From: Dehalococcoidia bacterium
GTDB lineage: Bacteria > Chloroflexota > Dehalococcoidia > Lucifugimonadales > UBA3495
NCBI GenBank assembly: GCA_034421995.1
Contig: DAOUJY010000047.1
Location: 39,125 to 103,124, forward strand
Length of the DNA stretch: 64,000 nt
Direction of reading: 5' to 3'
Shown piece after piece: positions 4,200-16,306 of the stretch. Each line of letters opens with the position of its first letter. Position 1 is the stretch's first letter. Made by a program: the position numbers and the translations under genes. Under the pieces are notes generated by a model. That model was given only the letters and a program-made list of their open reading frames with translations, searched no databases and was not told the origin of the DNA.

Positions 4200-6065
4200 A
4201 TGATCCTCGTTATGGAACAACAAAGCATACGCAACTTCTGCATCATCGCCCACATCGACCACGGCAAGTCCACCCTGGCCGACCGCTTTCTGGAGATCAC
4301 CGGCGCCGTCCGGCCCCAGGACATGAAAGCGCAGTTCCTGGACCAGATGGAACTGGAGCGGGAACGGGGCATCACCATCAAGGGCAAGGCGGTGACGATG
4401 ACTCATCGCACGCCCGATGGCGCCGAGTACCAGCTCAACCTCATCGACACGCCGGGCCACGTGGACTTCTCCTACGAGGTTTCCCGCGCCCTGGCCGCCT
4501 GCGAGGGCGCGCTGTTGGTGGTGGACGCCACCCAGGGCGTGGAGGCCCAGACCATCGCCAACACCCTGCTGGCCCTGGAGTACGACCTGGAGATGATCCC
4601 CGTCATCAACAAGGTCGATCTCCCCTCCGCCGAGCCGGAGCGGGTCGCCGCCGAACTGGAGCAGATCTTCGGCTTCCGCCGCGATGAGGTGGTGTTCGTT
4701 TCGGCGAAGGACGGCCTGGGCTGCCGCGAACTGCTGGACGCCATCGTGAAGCGCGTGCCGTCGCCCCATGGCGGCGCCGCGGATCCCTTCCGCGCCCTGG
4801 TGTTCGATTCTACCTACAACACCTACAAGGGCATCATCGCCTACGTGCGCGTCGCCGACGGCAGCATCTCGCGCCACGACCGCCTGCGGGTAATGTCCTC
4901 CGGCAAGTCGGTGGAAATCATGGAGGTGGGCGTCTTCGCGCCGGAGCCTACATCCACGGACGCGCTGTACGCGGGCCAGGTGGGCTACGTGGCCACCGGA
5001 TTCAAGGACGTGCAGGAATGCGCGGTGGGCGACACGTTGACCAGCAACGCCGCCCCCGCCGAGGACCCTCTGCCCGGCTACGTGGAACTGAAGTCCATGG
5101 TTTTCGCCGGCCTCTATCCCTCGGACGGCGAGGACTACACGAGGCTGCGCGCCGCATTGGAAAAGCTCAAGCTCAACGACGCCTCTCTGACCATCGAGCC
5201 GGAGAACAGCGGCGCGCTGGGCTTCGGGTTCCGGTGCGGCTTCCTGGGATTGGTGCACCTGGAGATCGTGCAGGAACGCCTGGAGCGTGAGTACGATCTG
5301 GACCTCATCGTCACCGCGCCCAGCGTGGCCTACGAGGTGCTGCTGACCGACGGCGAGGTGATGCGGGTGGACAACCCGTCCCTGCTGCCCCAGCCCAACA
5401 GCATCTCGGAAATCCGGGAGCCCATCCTGGGCGTCACCATCGTCGCTCCCAGCCGCTCCGTGGGCGCGGTGATGGAGCTGATGCACGCCCGCCGCTCCGA
5501 GTTCCGCCGCATGGAATACATCCAGGGCGTGGGCGGGAAGAACGCCAACGACGGGAGTTCAGGGGAATCCGACCAGAACCGGGTGGTGATGGAATACACC
5601 ATGCCCCTGGGGGAAATGCTGGCCGACTTCTACAACCAGCTGAAATCCCGCACCCAGGGCTACGCCTCTCTCGACTACACTTTCGAGGGCTACCGGGCCG
5701 CTCCGCTGGTGCGCATCGACATCCTGGTGAACCAGACGCCGGTGGAAGCATTGAGCATGATCAGCCACCGGGACAACGCCGTGGTCCAGGGCCGCAGCAT
5801 CGTGGAAAAGCTGCGCGCCACCATCCCCCGCCAGATGTTCGAGGTGCCCATCCAGGCCGCCATCGGCAGCCGCATCGTAGCCCGCGAAACCGTCCGCGCC
5901 ATGCGCAAGGACGTCCTCTCCAAGTGCTACGGTGGCGACATAACCCGCAAACGCAAACTTCTCGAAAAGCAGAAGGAAGGCAAGAAGCGCATGAAGCGCG
6001 TCGGCCGGGTGGAGGTTCCGCAGGAGGCGTTTTTGAGCCTGCTGAAGATTGGGGAAGAAGGCTAG
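4200..6065 (+). CDS. lepA: Elongation factor 4 (LepA)
   Basis: G motifs [17 protein letters not shown] and NKVD. C-terminal LepA tail ([23 protein letters not shown]). Confidence 0.97.
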
Positions 6066-6068
6066 CGG

Positions 6069-6470
6069 ATGTTACTGCGCTGGCCGGAGGATTTTCCCGA
6101 GGATTGCCCGCCGGAAGAGGCCGACCTGGCCAACGGAGTGTTTTACTACATCGTCAAAGCCAACCCACCGAGATCTGGCGATTTTATCCCGCTGTATCAT
6201 CGGAACCGGGGACTGGCCATGAGAAGGGTCAGGAACGGTATCGTAACGGAATGTCAAACGATGGGATTGTCAATCTTTGCCGACCAATCTGATGCTTTGG
6301 CACGGGCGCGGCAGTACCCCGAAATTGGGGATCGGATCGCTCAACTGGCGCTTGGCCCAGATGCGGGTAAAATACTCTCTACGCCGAGGGACGGCGATTC
6401 ACACCATACTTGGTGGAAAGCTGAAGGTTATGACCCGGCCGCGGTAGCCACTGTTGTACTCGACCTGTAG
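6069..6470 (+). CDS. Hypothetical protein (no family recognised)
   Basis: 133-aa ORF with an ATG 3 nt after the lepA stop. Region is visibly more AT-rich than its flanks. Confidence 0.5.
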   Translation: MLLRWPEDFPEDCPPEEADLANGVFYYIVKANPPRSGDFIPLYHRNRGLAMRRVRNGIVTECQTMGLSIFADQSDALARARQYPEIGDRIAQLALGPDAGKILSTPRDGDSHHTWWKAEGYDPAAVATVVLDL

Positions 6471-6490
6471 AGCAGTGTGGAGAAAGGATT

Positions 6491-6889
6491 ATGCTGTCCG
6501 CAATCAAAGGAACACCTTTGCCGAACTTGCCATGGGGCGAGATTTCGTATGATGAAGTGCTCGACCATTATGAGCAAGCCTGTATCACACTGCAACGCGG
6601 CCAAACCGGAGAACTGTATCTGACTTGGTGGAGCGACGCGGATGACGACGTTGAGCGGTGGGTTTGCCTGCCGCTCAGCAAAACGCGCCTCCGCGACATC
6701 CTTTCCGGAAAAACGGCGCCCCGATATGCTATGGACCACCCCGAGAACGGCTACGTGCTCGCGGTTGATATTGACTTGGCAACCGACGTGGTAGTTCGCA
6801 CCGTCAAAACTACCACTGCCGCCTTACCCCAGGACGCGCTGCCCCGACCCGAAGCCGAGCTGAAGATGCCGATGCCCGCAACGCTGTAA
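6491..6889 (+). CDS. Hypothetical protein (no family recognised)
   Basis: 132-aa ORF, 20 nt downstream of the previous ORF on the same strand. Confidence 0.5.
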   Translation: MLSAIKGTPLPNLPWGEISYDEVLDHYEQACITLQRGQTGELYLTWWSDADDDVERWVCLPLSKTRLRDILSGKTAPRYAMDHPENGYVLAVDIDLATDVVVRTVKTTTAALPQDALPRPEAELKMPMPATL

Positions 6890-6900
6890 AGGTTGGCGCT

Positions 6901-7425
6901 ATGTCAACGTTCAAGATTGATATAGCCGTCGGCCACCCGGATGGCGGCGACCTGTCCCCTGTAGGGCCAGTGGTTGACGAGACGGCGGCCCACTCCGTGT
7001 TGCCGGAGTCGCTGCTGACCAAGTTGGGTATTGCACCCCGTCGCCAGGTGGAACTCACTCGCTTTGACGGCAGCACGGCAAAGTACGGCTATGGCCTGGC
7101 CCGCTTCAGCATCGACGGCGAGGAATGGCCCTGCCCGGTGGTATTCGGGCCGGAGGACGATTGCCGGCTGGGCGCGTCGGCCCTGGAGATTTTCAACTTG
7201 GAGATTGACCGTGCCGGCGAAAAACTGCGACCGGCGAAGCGTCGTTTTCTGGGCCGGAAGGCACAAGGCCCGGACCGGGACGCGCCGCAAGGCGCTGCTG
7301 CAATCCTGCAGATGTTTAAGGAAATTCACGAGAGTATGCCGGAGGGAGCTCTGGATGAACTCCCGACCGATCTTTCGGTGAATTTTAAGCACTATCTCTA
7401 CGGCCGGCCGAAGGAAGGAGAATAG
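6901..7425 (+). CDS. Retropepsin-like domain protein (DTG replaced by DET) with a C-terminal antitoxin-like tail
   Basis: The first ~115 aa align by eye with the proteins at 10866 and 15938 (M.TF...VG...VVD[ET]AAHSVLP.SLL). The catalytic triplet reads D-E-T. An extra ~55-aa tail ends HYLYGRPKEGE. Confidence 0.6.
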   Translation: MSTFKIDIAVGHPDGGDLSPVGPVVDETAAHSVLPESLLTKLGIAPRRQVELTRFDGSTAKYGYGLARFSIDGEEWPCPVVFGPEDDCRLGASALEIFNLEIDRAGEKLRPAKRRFLGRKAQGPDRDAPQGAAAILQMFKEIHESMPEGALDELPTDLSVNFKHYLYGRPKEGE

Positions 7426-7433
7426 AGACTGAG

Positions 7434-7840
7434 GTATATGGGGATTCCGGCTACTGGATAGCTATGTTGAATCCAAGAGATCAATGGCATCAAAAAGCAA
7501 TGCAAATTACAGAGCGCATCGGCAACAGGCCCATTGTAACCAGCGAACTGGTCATACCGAATTTCTGAACGGCATGGCGCGACACGGCCCGCGAAGCCGT
7601 CGTGAAGGCGCGGATACCGCGCAAAAACTTTACGTCAACCCAGATATAACCGTCGTTCTGCTCCAGGATTTTCCGCTGGCAAATGCTATTGAACGATATG
7701 CCAGCCGCCTCGACCAGCGCTGGAGCGTGGTTGACTGCCACAGCTTTCTCATCATGGAGGAACGCGGCATAACCGATGCGCTGGCTTACGACCGAGACTT
7801 CGAGCAGGCTGGGTTTCGCGCCCTATTGCGGGAAGATTAG
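7434..7840 (+). pseudogene. PIN-domain (VapC-like) toxin remnant, frameshifted and without a canonical start
   Basis: One frame (7434-7568) reads VYGDSGYWIAMLNPRDQWHQKAMQITERIGNRPIVTSELV then a stop. A second frame continues EFLNGMAR...WSVVDCHSFLIMEERGITDALAYDRDFEQAGFRALL to 7840. Confidence 0.6.
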
Positions 7841-7975
7841 CGCACCTCTACCATCCGCGAAATCCACTTTTTACAAATAGTTAACCGCCCCGCAACAACG
7901 TTGTGGCATTCTATTCCCGACTATACCGCGCACTTGACGGCCAGCGAATCGTTTTCGCCGAAAGTTGGGAATCCA

Positions 7976-9355
7976 ATGCTCACCGATGTCATCACCGCCA
8001 GGCACTACCTGAACGAATGCTTTGACCCCGACGGATTCACCAGGCCCGCCTACCAGAGCCTGATGGACAACTTGGACCGCTTGGGCGTGCCCGAATTGCA
8101 GGGCCGCTGGCGCGAGGCCAAGCATCGCGCCGGACTGGACGCCTTCACCTTCATGCTGGACCCGCGGGAGTTCCGCACTGTGCCCACCGACTGGGTGCCG
8201 CGCATCATTCCCGCCGACGAATGGGATACCATCTCTCGCGGCGTGGAACAGCGTCTCAAGGCCATCAACCGTTTCCTGCTGGACCTCTACTGCGGCGAGC
8301 AGCAGGTGGTCCCGCCCGACGTGATGTATTCCTGCCAGTATTACAATCCGGAGTTGCAGGACTACCGCCCAGCTCAGAACGTGTTCGTCCACATCTACGG
8401 CATCGACCTGGTACACATGGGCGACGGCCGCTACGTCATTCTGGAAGATAACCTGCGCATACCATCGGGCATCAGTTACCAGTTGAAGACCGCCGAGCTC
8501 GGGCTGAACGTGATGCCGGAACTGGCCCAGGGCTACGACATCGTCCCCTACGACATTCGCGCCGGCTACCACGATATGTTTGCGTCGCTATGCGATACCG
8601 ATGATCCGGTATGCGTCCTGCTCACCGACAGCAAGTTCGGCTCGGCATTCTTTGAGCATCGCTACCTTTCGGAGTTGCTGGGCATTCCGCTGGTGGAAGG
8701 CTCCGACCTCTACATTGGCGCCAACGGTCGCGTGTGGGGTCGCGCCATCGACGGCGACTTCGAGGTTGATCTCATTTACCGCCGGGTGGAAGACCTGGAG
8801 CTTTTCGTGCCCGGCCTGACCGAAGCCTACCTCAACCACAAGGTCGTGCTGGTCAACGCCATGGGAACCGGCGCCGGCGATGACAAGCTGGTGTTCCTCT
8901 GGGCGCCCGATATGATAAAAACGTACCTGGGGGAAGAGGCCATTCTGGAACAGGCGACCAGCTATGATCTGCGTTCGCCGGCCAACAGGCAGTACGTATT
9001 GCAGAACCTCGATAGCCTGGTGTTGAAAACGCGCCAGGGCTACGGTGGGTTGGGCGTGTTCATCATGCCCGACTTGGACAAGGGCTATCGCAGCCGCCTG
9101 TCCCAACAGCTGATTGAACAGCCCCAGGTGTTCATCGCCCAGGAAACCCTGGACTTCTCCCAACATCTTGTCTTTGACGAGTCCGGTGGCGAATTTGAGG
9201 AGCGCTACGTTGACCTGCGCGTGTTCGCCGTGCAGAACGGTCGGGGAGAGGTCACCGTTTTCCCCGGCGGACTGACCCGCGTGTCCGAGGCCAACAGCCG
9301 GGTGACCAACAACTCGTCAGGAGGGTCATGCAAACCGACCTGGGTAGTCCGCTGA
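7976..9355 (+). CDS. Circularly permuted ATP-grasp type 2 protein
   Basis: Clear paralog of the ORF at 18634-20094 (shared blocks FxLDPxPR..., EDNLR(I/V)PSG(I/V)SY, NA(M/P)GTG(A/V)(G/A)DDK). Start taken at ATG 7976; the track ORF begins at TTG 7901. Confidence 0.88.
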   Translation: MLTDVITARHYLNECFDPDGFTRPAYQSLMDNLDRLGVPELQGRWREAKHRAGLDAFTFMLDPREFRTVPTDWVPRIIPADEWDTISRGVEQRLKAINRFLLDLYCGEQQVVPPDVMYSCQYYNPELQDYRPAQNVFVHIYGIDLVHMGDGRYVILEDNLRIPSGISYQLKTAELGLNVMPELAQGYDIVPYDIRAGYHDMFASLCDTDDPVCVLLTDSKFGSAFFEHRYLSELLGIPLVEGSDLYIGANGRVWGRAIDGDFEVDLIYRRVEDLELFVPGLTEAYLNHKVVLVNAMGTGAGDDKLVFLWAPDMIKTYLGEEAILEQATSYDLRSPANRQYVLQNLDSLVLKTRQGYGGLGVFIMPDLDKGYRSRLSQQLIEQPQVFIAQETLDFSQHLVFDESGGEFEERYVDLRVFAVQNGRGEVTVFPGGLTRVSEANSRVTNNSSGGSCKPTWVVR

Positions 9356-10227
9356 TACGCGAGACGGTCCCGGTGCATTACGCCTACATTGCCAGATATA
9401 CCTACTCCGATGTAGTGGTGCAGAACGATAACTTCCTCCGGCTGTCGGCATACTCCGATCTCTACCAGAAACCGGGCGCCGGCGAGGTGGCCACAACCCC
9501 GCCGGGCCGCCAGATCGTTTATACCGACCGCCTGGGCAACACTGTCCATCGGGTTCGCATATCCGCGCCGCACCAGGAACTGATCATTGCCGCCGCCGGG
9601 CACGTTTGCCTGAGCGACCTGTCGCCGGATGTAGGCGACGTCCCACTGGCCGGCCTCGAATACGGGCTGGAAGCGCAGGAGTTCCTCACCGCGTCCCACC
9701 TGGCCGATCCGGCCGCCGTCGTGGAAACCGCTCTGGTCGCCGCCGGCGGGGCATCCACATTGCTGGATACGGTGAGCAACGTGGTGCGGTGGATCTACGA
9801 AAACGTGCGTTACCAGCGCGGCCACACGTCGGTGAACACCACCGCGGCGGACGTGCTGGAGTCCATGAGCGGCGTTTGCCAGGACATGACCCACCTGGGC
9901 CTCGCCATGCTGCGCTCCCTGGGCATCCCGGCCCGCTACGTCAGCGGCCTGCTCACCCGGCAGCCGGGCGAGACCCACGCCTGGCTGGAGTTCATGCATC
10001 CCCAGCAGGGCTGGCTGCCCGCCGACCCCACTCGTGGCCTCGTCAGCAACACCGGAACCGATTACCTGAAGTTCGGCGTGGGCCGCGACTACTCCGAAGT
10101 GCCGCCCGTGTCCGGCTCCTTTGTGTCAAAAGGCTCCGGCCAACTGGATATGGCCGCTGCCGAAGTCTTTTTCGACCGCGACACGATTTCAATGGAAGAT
10201 GCCTTCGGGCTGCTGGGACGCTTGTAG
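9328..10227 (+). CDS. Transglutaminase-family protein (N-terminal Bact_transglu_N-like plus Cys-His-Asp core)
   Basis: Core motifs GVCQDMTHL, HAWLEF and ADPT. Confidence 0.88.
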   Translation: MQTDLGSPLIRETVPVHYAYIARYTYSDVVVQNDNFLRLSAYSDLYQKPGAGEVATTPPGRQIVYTDRLGNTVHRVRISAPHQELIIAAAGHVCLSDLSPDVGDVPLAGLEYGLEAQEFLTASHLADPAAVVETALVAAGGASTLLDTVSNVVRWIYENVRYQRGHTSVNTTAADVLESMSGVCQDMTHLGLAMLRSLGIPARYVSGLLTRQPGETHAWLEFMHPQQGWLPADPTRGLVSNTGTDYLKFGVGRDYSEVPPVSGSFVSKGSGQLDMAAAEVFFDRDTISMEDAFGLLGRL

Positions 10228-10865: not shown

Positions 10866-11225
10866 TCAGAGGCGCACCCTTGTGGTCGGTTCCAATACCT
10901 CACGAACCGGGTCAACTTTGAACATCAGCATCTGTAGCGTGGTCGCCCCAACGATGTTGACGTCATTACCTTCCGGCCCAAATATCGCCGGGCAAATTTC
11001 TTCGCGGTCGTCAATCCCAATCAGTGCCCGACCGCGCCAGTAAGATACCTCACTGCCGTCGGCCAGTGTCGCATCAACTTGGGAACTTCGGCTTATGCGC
11101 AGCCCGTCCAGCAACGACGCGGGAAACATGGCGAAGGAGGCGCCGGTATCAACCAACGCCTCAACCTCTATCATGTCGCCGCCGTCAGGATTGCCGACCC
11201 GAACCATTGTTGAGAACGTGCCCAT
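10866..11225 (-). CDS. Retropepsin-like (clan AA) aspartic protease, single domain
   Basis: ALVDTGASFAMFP catalytic motif. ATG 11225 lies 7 nt after GGAGGA. Paralog of the proteins at 6901 and 15938. Confidence 0.75.
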   Translation of the reverse strand: MGTFSTMVRVGNPDGGDMIEVEALVDTGASFAMFPASLLDGLRISRSSQVDATLADGSEVSYWRGRALIGIDDREEICPAIFGPEGNDVNIVGATTLQMLMFKVDPVREVLEPTTRVRL

Positions 11226-11259
11226 TGATGTTTCCTCCACAGGTTAGGCGACAACGATT

Positions 11260-14506: not shown

Positions 14507-14857
14507 CTACCAGTCGATGGTGAGGCGGCAGTTCGCCAGCAAGGCCGTGCCTATCATGGGATAGCTTCCCAAGGTCTGTACCCGCACGTCCAAAGGCTGC
14601 CCGTGCCAAAGTATGCGCCCAGCGTGAACGTTGGCGCGGATGCTCCGCCCGTCTGCAAGGGTTACTCGTTCCGCTCTTGCGCTGCTCAATCCCAGCTCAT
14701 GCGCTGCTGATTCCGGCAGCGATAGCGCCCCGGTGAACCCGGTATCGATTAATACCTCGACCGACCGGAAAATCCGGTCATCGCCGGCAATGTCAATAGT
14801 GATCCGCGCTTCCAGTTGGGACGCATCTCGCCGAATGCTCACCTGCCCACTAATCAT
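14507..14857 (-). CDS. Clan AA aspartic protease (AF_0612/DTGF-like), module A
   Basis: MISG... LIDTGFTGALSLP ... TIDW. Its start overlaps the stop of the upstream small ORF (ATGATTAG). Confidence 0.75.
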   Translation of the reverse strand: MISGQVSIRRDASQLEARITIDIAGDDRIFRSVEVLIDTGFTGALSLPESAAHELGLSSARAERVTLADGRSIRANVHAGRILWHGQPLDVRVQTLGSYPMIGTALLANCRLTIDW

Positions 14858-15158
14858 GAATTTGCCTTTGTCGATCAGCCAGAATCTCCATGGTTCCCCG
14901 CCAACCCAATCTCACCGGCGAGTACGGCTTGTCGCTGCCCACCAGTTCGGCCCAGGTGAATGCGTTCGGATGTCGTTCCCGCAGACGCTTGGTTAGCTCC
15001 ACGTCGCTGTGCTCACCTCGGTACTCGCCAACCTCATAGTCGCCACTGTGAATGTCGATGACCACCAGTTTGCCCCAATGCTTGGCTTCCATTTCCTCAC
15101 GGATGCCCGCGTAGATTTTCTGGCCCATGGCGGCCGCTTCATCCGGCGTGAGTTCCAT
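14850..15158 (-). CDS. Small partner protein of protease A (DUF5678-like by recollection)
   Basis: About two-thirds identical by eye to 15618-15941 over ~73 aa. ATG 15158 lies 6 nt after GGAGGG. The longer track ORF (to 15344) is rejected. Confidence 0.6.
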   Translation of the reverse strand: MELTPDEAAAMGQKIYAGIREEMEAKHWGKLVVIDIHSGDYEVGEYRGEHSDVELTKRLRERHPNAFTWAELVGSDKPYSPVRLGWRGTMEILADRQRQIHD

Positions 15159-15222
15159 AATCATCCCTCCCGTCAAAGGCCACCGCCAAGTCCAGTCCGC
15201 CTCCGGCGCATGGCCCCGGACG

Positions 15223-15621
15223 TTACTCCTCCGGCAGCATTCGTTCTTCAATGATAACGTCGCCGCCGTCCCACCAGTCGATGATGAGGCGGCTGTCGGC
15301 CAGCAGGTCGGTGCCGATGAGCGTGTCATTGCCGGACTCGGCAAATACCCGCCTCATCCGTCCGTGCCACAATATCCACACGGCATAAACGTTAACTTGC
15401 ACTGTTGGGCCATGAGCCTGGCGCACATACCGCCTTGACGTGAAACGCAAGCCAAGCTCCTGCACAACGGGTTCCGGCAGGGTTAGCCAATCCGTAGCCC
15501 CGGTATCTACCACAGCCGCCAGTGTCCGGAAAGCCAGATCATCGCCAGCTACTGCGATGTCAACCCAAGCCTCCAAGCCGGCGCCGTCTGTCGCGCTTGG
15601 CCGGACTATTCCACTAATCAT
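15223..15621 (-). CDS. Clan AA aspartic protease (AF_0612-like), module B
   Basis: MISG... VVDTGATDWLTLP ... IIDW. ATGA overlap with the upstream small ORF. Confidence 0.75.
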   Translation of the reverse strand: MISGIVRPSATDGAGLEAWVDIAVAGDDLAFRTLAAVVDTGATDWLTLPEPVVQELGLRFTSRRYVRQAHGPTVQVNVYAVWILWHGRMRRVFAESGNDTLIGTDLLADSRLIIDWWDGGDVIIEERMLPEE

Positions 15622-15941
15622 GGGTCAACCTTCTGTTCAGGCCGTACCGGAAACAACCCGCGCCTTCCCGGTTTCCTGTAATACGGTGCCGGGTAGCCCA
15701 CCAGCACTGCCCAAGTTTGGGCGTCGGGCCACCGCTCGAGCAAACGACTCGTCATTTCCTCATCGCTGCGGCGGCTTACGAATGCACCCACTTCATAGTC
15801 ACCACTGTGAACGTCGATGACCACCAGCTCGCCCCAGTGGTTAGCTTCCATTTCCTCGCGGATGCTCTCGTAGATTTTCTGGCCGGCGGCGGCAGCTTCC
15901 TCGCCGGTGAATTCGGTTGTTTCCTTGTCGCCGTATTTCAT
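15618..15941 (-). CDS. Small partner protein of protease B
   Basis: Core AAAAGQKIYESIREEMEANHWGELVVIDVHSGDYEVG. ATGA overlaps at both ends. Confidence 0.65.
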   Translation of the reverse strand: MKYGDKETTEFTGEEAAAAGQKIYESIREEMEANHWGELVVIDVHSGDYEVGAFVSRRSDEEMTSRLLERWPDAQTWAVLVGYPAPYYRKPGRRGLFPVRPEQKVDP

Positions 15942-16306
15942 AGTGTTCCCCCTTGCATCAGCAAGTCTTCCTGGACCACCAGCCGCTGGTCCACCGGGTC
16001 AACCGCCAAGCCCATATCCTCCAGCGTGGTCGCTCCCATCAGGTACACCCCTTCCGACCCGAAAGACACGCGGGCCACTGCGTTGCGGCCTGCTGCGGAG
16101 AACCTTGCCCAGGCAGTTTGCAACTCCATTCTGCTGCCGTCGGCAATCCTGGATATTCTGGTTTCAACCGGCTCAATCCCCAGCTCGCGCAATATGCTGG
16201 CTGGAATCATCGAGTGCGTGGCTCCGGTATCGACCAATGCCGAAACCGTAGCGCCGGCGCCGGTGAAAATGTTGCCCACCCACAAATCAACGCTGAAAGT
16301 ACCCAT
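15938..16306 (-). CDS. Retropepsin-like (clan AA) aspartic protease, single domain
   Basis: MGTFSVDLWVG... ALVDTGATHSMIPASIL. Same subtype as the proteins at 10866 and 6901. Confidence 0.75.
   Translation of the reverse strand: MGTFSVDLWVGNIFTGAGATVSALVDTGATHSMIPASILRELGIEPVETRISRIADGSRMELQTAWARFSAAGRNAVARVSFGSEGVYLMGATTLEDMGLAVDPVDQRLVVQEDLLMQGGTL

Follow-up and report, generated by a model that had tools for sequence, protein, structure and literature searches.

A degenerate retropepsin fold joined to a PIN-associated tail: a probable VapBC-type antitoxin from Dehalococcoidia

VapBC systems are type II toxin-antitoxin (TA) pairs in which the antitoxin gene lies upstream of the gene of a PIN-domain toxin and overlaps it by 1-4 nucleotides (nt). 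The toxin carries four acidic residues, the antitoxin is modular, with an N-domain of the RHH, AbrB, PHD or HTH type preceding a C-terminal toxin-associated region, and chromosomal copies decay toxin-first. This PIN/VapBC framework and the modularity of antitoxins are established knowledge, as is the binding and blocking of the toxin by the C-terminal regions of VapB antitoxins; a DNA-binding N-domain is common among antitoxins, albeit not obligatory. Here, we report on the gene at 6901-7425 of a 64-kb stretch of DNA from a Dehalococcoidia bacterium (contig DAOUJY010000047.1), the whole stretch being referred to as the window and all positions being counted within it. The gene encodes a fusion of a retropepsin-fold domain with a C-terminal tail, and it very probably represents the antitoxin of a VapBC-type pair. 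Gene order, overlap, the modular antitoxin, the four acidic PIN residues and the toxin-first decay all recur at this locus, whereas the N-domain is an acidic retropepsin fold that is probably not DNA-binding. In further difference to VapBC, the tail family is represented neither by a Pfam or NCBIfam model nor by a solved structure, and the pair has no recognisable promoter of its own behind lepA.

The fold of the N-domain is shared with free-standing prokaryotic retropepsins (PF13650/PF13975; TIGR03698, clan AA 'DTGF'; APRc, PDB 5c9b; DDI1 RVP). Retropepsins build one active site across a dimer, and the fold is an obligate dimer in the active relatives. DTG-bearing paralogues from Dehalococcoidia align over the full length of the N-domain with 36-68% identity, and the LGW of their conserved C-terminal …LGW… end persists in the fusion, marking the joining point. 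In contrast to these proteins, the window protein carries D-E-T instead of D-T-G, scores below the family cut-offs and has an antitoxin tail attached.

Residues 1-114 of the fusion aligned with the two free-standing paralogues of the window at 10866-11240 (40.5% identity, E 5e-21) and 15938-16306 (36.4% identity, E 2e-14), both on the minus strand. The two paralogues read V-D-T-G-A where the fusion reads V-D-E-T-A (D-E-T-A being residues 26-29), and the C-terminal ~55 amino acids (aa) of the fusion, ending in …LPTDLSVNFKHYLYGRPKE, have no counterpart in them. A preliminary description of the locus, made by a model from the letters and translations only, had claimed a match of the N-terminal ~115 aa to active paralogs with a D-E-T in place of D-T-G as well as a tail of ~55 aa missing from the paralogs, and the alignments agree on each of these points. 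Its assignment of a retropepsin domain held with respect to alignments and fold, but not with respect to curated hidden Markov model (HMM) cut-offs, below which the N-domain remained throughout (PF13975, 18.4 vs 28.2; PF13650, 15.7 vs 24.3; TIGR03698, 18.6 vs 57.35). The retropepsin identity is consequently based on the alignments to paralogs and orthologs together with the fold, and not on Pfam scores. An AlphaFold2 (AF2) model, calculated as a single chain from an alignment of 46 sequences, reached a predicted local distance difference test (pLDDT) value >90 across residues ~10-110. Foldseek matched this model to HIV-1 and other retroviral protease monomers (E ~1e-5, probability 1.00), with a template modelling (TM) score of 0.69-0.77 normalised to the 99-residue retroviral target, and additionally to the Rickettsia retropepsin APRc; the N-domain sequence profile gave a weak match to the retropepsin domain of DDI1. 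As modelled, the N-domain is a retropepsin-fold homologue devoid of the catalytic motif and not an active family member, and the sequence leads us to expect no protease activity of the window protein.

Directly behind this gene, the PIN frame opens at the fusion stop codon TAG (7423-7425); the preliminary description had placed it within ~10 nt of the gene end. Frame A reads …ETEVYGDSGYWIAMLNPRDQWHQKA…SELVIPNF up to a stop (piece 7425-7565), and frame B, reached after a deletion behind 7556, reads …TEFLNGMARHG…DRDFEQAGFRALLRED up to a stop, extending to 7840. Scanned separately against Pfam, the two pieces gave no match; joined, they reached 36.1 bits with PF01850 (cut-off 23.6), which substantiates the PIN toxin remnant postulated earlier. 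The joined reading encodes the acidic PIN residues D (GDSGYW), E (TSELV), D (VVDCHS) and D (YDRDF) and shares 99% identity with the 138-aa PIN of the orthologous locus L005, which is intact; a comparison of the two genes shows exactly two lesions in the window. The nearest solved relative by sequence is VapC20 of M. tuberculosis (PDB 5wzf, E 4.7e-7). In L001, L002, L004 and L005 the PIN start codon is GTG, overlapping the fusion stop by 1 nt on TAG or, in L001, by 4 nt on TGA (GTGA).

An assembly error was considered as cause of the two lesions and ruled out by an independent Logan assembly of the source sponge-metagenome run (X1, depth 56), which showed 0 differences from the window across 6850-7900. 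At 7426, related strains in three other runs (X2, X4 and X5) have a T, and behind 7556 they have the additional G; X1 has neither. Hence, the lesions are real and recent, and since the PIN gene is dead, with its start lost and 1 nt deleted, the antitoxin is now an orphan in the window genome. A pseudogene next door might cast doubt on the fusion itself, as a merger introduced by sequencing or assembly or as a decaying pseudogene. The chance of this is negligible, considering that 13 clusters, obtained from independent samples and with independent assemblers, share the same single open reading frame (ORF), that the independent assembly mentioned above agrees fully with the window, and that both halves are under purifying selection, with ratios of nonsynonymous to synonymous substitution rates (dN/dS, omega) of 0.14-0.28 for the N-domain and 0.07-0.32 for the tail. 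Besides the window fusion, a protein search provided 12 further full-length orthologous clusters with 59-84% identity to it, together with many free-standing retropepsins of ~120 aa.

The pairing of fusion and PIN was followed through the orthologous loci L001-L005, L007 and L009-L012, which amount to nine distinct ones as L004 and L012 are one record. Fusion and PIN overlap by 1-4 nt in all nine, and the PIN frame is open with 138-146 aa in eight, so that the intact orthologous pairs which the preliminary description had proposed to look for do exist. The PIN gene overlaps the fusion stop in every orthologous locus, and D-T-G is lost in 11 of the 13 fusion clusters; orthologs with D-T-G intact and no PIN neighbour, named there as the contrary case, are thus not what these loci present. 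Two of the orthologous toxins are impaired next to an intact fusion: the PIN of L007 (L007:3008-3424) has an in-frame stop after residue 58, and the PIN of L001 (L001:4519-4935) has its third catalytic Asp changed to Gly (…SLVGCHS…). Including the window, the toxin is impaired in 3/10 loci, the fusion ORF being intact in 10/10. The four fusion loci for which the genome is named (L009-L012), like nearly all of 65 scanned retropepsin loci, belong to metagenome-assembled genomes (MAGs) of Dehalococcoidia/Chloroflexota, several of them from sponge or coral samples. As a side observation, the start region of the PIN gene in L004 (L004:3657-4091) shows a tandem triplication, VYEVYEVYEVYGD (DNA gaggtatat x3), with a product of 144 aa.

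This pattern of decay raises the question of whether the gene still acts on its own toxin here. It could instead persist as an orphan 'anti-addiction' antitoxin against related PINs, encoded elsewhere in the genome or on elements entering it, or as a pseudo-protease with a PIN-independent function. The independent impairment of the PIN in three of ten loci beside a fusion that is always intact and evolves at an omega well below 1 speaks in favour of such a role, and orphan tail-bearing antitoxins do exist, e.g., P0056 (AF2212+tail) with no PIN adjoining. However, the window PIN is ~99% identical to an intact one, placing its death in the very recent past, and retention of the fusion may simply reflect lack of time. 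No other PIN of the same subfamily was found within the 64-kb window. Moreover, residue 169, located at a clade-conserved position, is R in the window only: it is W in 11 of the 12 other fusion clusters and F in the remaining one (P0013), and runs X2, X4 and X5 have T at 7405. This W169R exchange, unique to the window tail, may be a first sign of relaxation. Taken together, we regard an orphan role as rather unlikely, albeit as the most serious competitor of the VapBC-type antitoxin.

The second line of evidence for a VapBC-type antitoxin concerns the tail. The tail alone had no match in a word-indexed search, and no model in Pfam or NCBIfam covers it. The former result is due to the sensitivity of word searches and not to absence, because a profile including cyanobacterial tails found thousands of relatives. 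A tblastn search of a plasmid collection with the tail returned small ORFs annotated 'hypothetical' on one Microcystis and two Stanieria plasmids, and a separate tblastn search with the PIN returned the genes immediately 3' of the same tail ORFs on all three plasmids. The plasmid tail proteins have 75-102 aa and overlap the PIN gene by 1-4 nt. Typical C-terminal ends are …ILKIVDKLNLNFPEEELERLPTDGAEEHDHYLYGSPKKRQ (Microcystis), …LPTDGAVQHDHYIYGTPKVD (Stanieria), …SSEHDHYLYGTPK (Nostoc) and …NHDAYLYGT (Salinibacter); the upstream ORFs preceding PIN genes terminate in …LPTDGAEEHDHYLYGSPK or alike, and their N-domains resemble HicB/UPF0150, AF2212 or AbrB/MazE according to weak Pfam matches.

Profile searches extended this set considerably. 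In a database of 5.8 billion sequences, the tail profile matched 2,406 small proteins at E<=1 (best ~1e-19), some of which are named by their sources as HicB-like/HicB-family, 'antitoxin family protein' (PF01954), RHH or DUF2281; Chloroflexota members share 62-79% identity with the window tail. HMMER with a 47-position profile returned 2,460 clusters at E<=1e-3 among 1.84 billion representatives, and most of the 150 matches listed place the tail at the C-terminus or close to it. The N-domains carrying it comprise AF2212-like, RHH, HicB-like, DUF2281, AbrB, TPR and DUF6575 types, and longer carriers include TPR-repeat proteins of 200-465 aa, a DUF6575 + tail protein (P0177, 194 aa) and proteins with two tails in tandem. 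The top profile match, P0164 (3,172 aa, with an astacin domain), was rejected as a repeat artefact of 16 weak stretches (…ATLPTDAPYKVCHFL…) and not a homologue. Judged by these searches, the tail is a C-terminal module that is portable and occurs, combined with many N-domains, in thousands of small antitoxin-like proteins.

A PIN of the same subfamily lies directly downstream of six of the seven standalone tail genes examined; behind P0046 (RHH+tail) the next gene is a PIN 59% identical to that of L005, and behind P0114 (DUF2281+tail) it is a PIN homologue with E 1e-26. The preliminary description had mentioned that small ORFs in front of PIN genes carry similar …HYLYG.PK tails, and both the adjacent tblastn matches and the profile homologues confirm that such PIN-associated relatives exist. 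These standalone 'HYLYG-tail' antitoxins of cyanobacteria, Chloroflexota, Acidobacteriota and others share with the window gene the ~45-aa module …IL.MF.EI…PE…LPTD….HYLYG.PK and the downstream PIN subfamily. They are proteins of 50-105 aa with small conventional N-domains (AF2212-like/PF01954, HicB-like, RHH, DUF2281/PF10047 or AbrB), whereas the N-domain in the window is a complete 112-aa protease fold. The diversity of N-domains, TPR proteins of 200-465 aa among them, would also suit a tag of general use, e.g., a C-terminal degron or localisation signal, that binds no toxin. We consider this highly improbable given that the same PIN subfamily follows directly, and usually overlaps, in 6/7 standalone cases and 9/9 orthologous loci, that members are annotated as antitoxins by their sources, and that the identities of tail and PIN are tightly correlated.

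This correlation was obtained by pairwise comparison of 10 loci. Tail identity and PIN identity correlate with a Spearman rho of 0.95, a value to be read in the light of few recombination events and of a contribution by adjacency linkage, and N-domain identity correlates neither with PIN identity (rho 0.08) nor with tail identity (rho 0.10). Between window and L005, the identity amounts to 66% for the N-domain, 94% for the tail and 99% for the PIN. On DNA level, it is 53-76% up to about 7320 and 97-100% beyond, with the jump located at about 7280-7326. In the X4 and X5 contigs, 6960-7278 is swapped for 319 unlike bases, and the sequences rejoin at 7279, at the tail start. Furthermore, the proteins of L005 and L007 group together in the N-domain tree (support 100/99), yet their PINs are only 60% identical. 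The identity jump, the swap and the conflict between tree and PINs led us to interpret the linker as recombination and module boundary. By these comparisons, the tail is co-inherited with the PIN and not with its own N-domain, which we rate as supportive rather than conclusive evidence for a physical interaction of the two. On a larger scale, the islet from lepA to the tail (6000-7320) shows 53-76% identity to L005, and the right side (7320-9400, comprising tail, PIN and the ATP-grasp operon) shows 85-100%; by sequence, the islet looks like a hypervariable or replaceable segment with its right edge inside the fusion gene.

In the mechanism we propose for a VapBC-type antitoxin of this design, the tail would bind the PIN toxin and block its RNase site. 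The retropepsin fold would most likely act as a catalysis-independent dimerisation or scaffold domain in the place of RHH, AbrB or AF2212. A DNA-binding role of the N-domain was considered and is unlikely: the N-domains of the fusion family are acidic (pI, isoelectric point, 4.4-5.3; net charge -4 to -11), and operator binding is improbable because of this acidity and because the module is packed behind lepA without a promoter-like site and with a terminator-like hairpin (weak evidence) not before the end of the PIN. A DNA-binding autoregulatory N-domain, as a feature of type II antitoxins, is probably missing here, and expression probably rides on the lepA transcript. With regard to its origin, the LGW at the linker start matches the …LGWGG C-terminus of the free paralogues, suggesting that a whole retropepsin gene was joined to the tail; N-domains would later have been exchanged by recombination in the linker.

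Several points weigh against this interpretation, in addition to the limits given above for the correlation of tail and PIN. Dimerisation of the N-domain is an assumption, and the fold lacks the 'fireman's grip' Thr. The consensus behind the promoter scan, which found no promoter-like site from lepA to the fusion, is of the E. coli type and may not hold for Chloroflexota. No solved structure contains the tail: its profile, searched against PDB sequences, matched designed helical bundles alone at E>0.8, and we judged these matches spurious. The persistence of an intact and constrained fusion beside impaired PINs may point to a PIN-independent role. Finally, the statistics on loss of the catalytic motif, described in the following, treat family members without regard to shared ancestry.

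A census of the DTG motif covered 100 non-identical family members, 71 free-standing and 29 fused. DTG/DSG is kept in 66 of the 71 free-standing proteins vs 5 of the 29 fused ones (Fisher p 1.3e-13, the test ignoring shared ancestry), the latter being divided into 2/13 with the tail and 3/16 with DUF2442. Degenerate versions read DET, DER, DSS, DAD, DAN, GTG; DVT, DAS, DAT, DAV, NAV, DIG, DVG and DVW. In the tree, the N-domains fused to the tail and those fused to DUF2442 are sister clades, nested within free forms that carry DTG. The basal fusion clusters P0011 and P0013 still have DTG, and the mixing of degenerate with DTG-bearing members implies that the motif was lost several times independently.

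The retropepsin-DUF2442 (PF10387) fusions (P0023-P0038) have ~200-250 aa and a degenerate DTG in 13 of 16 cases. In L025 (fusion at L025:94-771), L040, L042 and L062, a DUF4160 (PF13711) gene follows directly. PMC8198452 lists DUF4160 and DUF2442 as toxin and antitoxin of the dhiTA pair from Dickeya dadantii. The design is alike, with retropepsin fold and antitoxin followed by the toxin, and DTG is mostly lost in the DUF2442 clade too. The toxin and antitoxin chemistry differs from that of the window pair, the classical dhiTA order of DUF4160 before DUF2442 is reversed in the retropepsin-DUF2442 loci, and no such pair is present in the window. Domain composition thereby indicates that the same protease fold is recruited as N-terminal part of two unrelated antitoxins. 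The link between a protease family and TA biology, which the preliminary description had drawn from the fusion of pseudo-protease and antitoxin, is supported and extended by this second case.

An alternative reading is regulatory, with the protease fold connecting the antitoxin to active free retropepsins. Cleavage of the linker, by paralogues or by a DTG domain itself, would free the tail and release the PIN; alternatively, the dead subunit would heterodimerise with paralogues and poison or sense them. Such heterodimerisation is conceivable as the single active site of retropepsins spans the dimer. Several free paralogues are found nearby, in L001, L003 and L007 the gene of an active 124-aa retropepsin immediately precedes the fusion, the basal members P0011 and P0013 keep their DTG, and the linker motif K/RRRFLG is conserved in the degenerate clade. 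However, the upstream partner varies, being a retropepsin, a DUF6575 protein or nothing, and the same tail sits on many N-domains unrelated to proteases, leaving this option unlikely in comparison with a mere scaffold in a VapBC-type antitoxin.

The wider neighbourhood is conserved in part (Table 1). The fusion is preceded by lepA wherever the upstream flank is present (the L005 contig begins short of it), with a free retropepsin or DUF6575 gene in between in some loci and nothing in others. Downstream of the pair follows an operon of CP-ATP-grasp (CP_ATPgrasp) and transglutaminase genes, except in L002. The arrangement of DUF6575 then fusion is also found in L005 and L006. A 133-aa ORF at 6069-6470, beginning 3 nt past the lepA stop, has no match in Pfam or NCBIfam; its homologue in L005 (184-587) and L006 is split into ORFs of 52 and 82 aa. 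The active DTGA retropepsins of 124 aa between lepA and fusion (L001:3606-3980, L003:2606-2980 and L007:2098-2472) are ~55% identical to the fusion N-domain and occupy the place of DUF6575 in the window. Elsewhere in the window, two tandem pairs on the minus strand (14507-15344 and 15223-15941) each consist of a small protein followed by a retropepsin of a second subtype, characterised by DTGF/DTGA, a MISG… start and overlapping genes. A fixed downstream partner of the free retropepsins was sought and none was found, just occasional tandem copies; an AF2212-like ORF adjoining the L030 retropepsin has neither tail nor PIN.

Table 1. Positions of the fusion gene, its parts and neighbouring features in the 64-kb window
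Feature	Position	Strand	Evidence
Fusion gene: retropepsin-fold pseudo-protease + linker + antitoxin tail, 174 aa, intact ORF	6901..7425	+	
Retropepsin-fold N-domain, residues 1-112, acidic (pI 4.7, net charge -7)	6901..7236	+	AF2, Foldseek
Degenerate catalytic motif D26-E27-T28 (GAC GAG ACG) replacing D-T-G	6976..6984	+	Paralog/ortholog alignment
Basic linker KRRFLGRKAQGPDRD between N-domain and tail; recombination breakpoint at 3' end (~7279-7326)	7237..7281	+	
Putative antitoxin tail module, 47 aa: APQGAAAILQMFKEIHESMPEGALDELPTDLSVNFKHYLYGRPKEGE	7282..7422	+	tblastn, profile searches
Codon CGG, R169 in YG[W/F]PK	7405..7407	+	Cluster alignment, sequencing runs
PIN (VapC-like) pseudogene, start lost and frameshift, four acidic PIN residues still encoded	7425..7840	+	PF01850, L005 comparison
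Former PIN start codon, now GAG (T->A at 7426)	7425..7427	+	Relatives, runs
1-nt deletion site; relatives with extra G read ATA GCC GAA (I-A-E), window ATA CCG AA	7556..7557	+	
DUF6575 ORF, 132 aa, ends 11 nt before fusion ATG	6491..6889	+	PF20215, 33.7 bits
Terminator-like hairpin 3' of the PIN remnant	7890..7906	+	Weak evidence
Free-standing paralogue, DTGA intact	10866..11240	-	Alignment; PF13650 26.5, above cut-off
Free-standing paralogue, DTGA intact	15938..16306	-	Alignment

Full-text literature searches provided no link of retropepsins or aspartic proteases to antitoxins, apart from an unrelated note on a CRISPR-associated retropepsin, and a complete protease fold as N-domain of an antitoxin appears to be undescribed. 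New aspects are the retropepsin fold in this position, recruited twice and with catalysis lost repeatedly, and the delineation of a large PIN-associated tail family lacking a Pfam or NCBIfam model as well as a solved structure. The system represents a natural experiment in pseudo-enzyme evolution, in which one fold is joined to two unrelated antitoxins and the catalytic motif is lost repeatedly under purifying selection. With a model for the tail (>2,400 clusters), the TA pairs of cyanobacteria, Chloroflexota and Acidobacteriota would be better annotated. There is a slim chance that the fold serves as a sensor or switch that couples release of the PIN and DUF4160 toxins to protease biology, by linker cleavage or heterodimerisation; if so, a single network of regulation or defence would unite a family of small prokaryotic retropepsins with two unrelated TA systems in Dehalococcoidia associated with sponges and corals. 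In any case, these fusions provide a first inroad into the function of the enigmatic free-standing retropepsins of prokaryotes, a group expanded in these symbionts.

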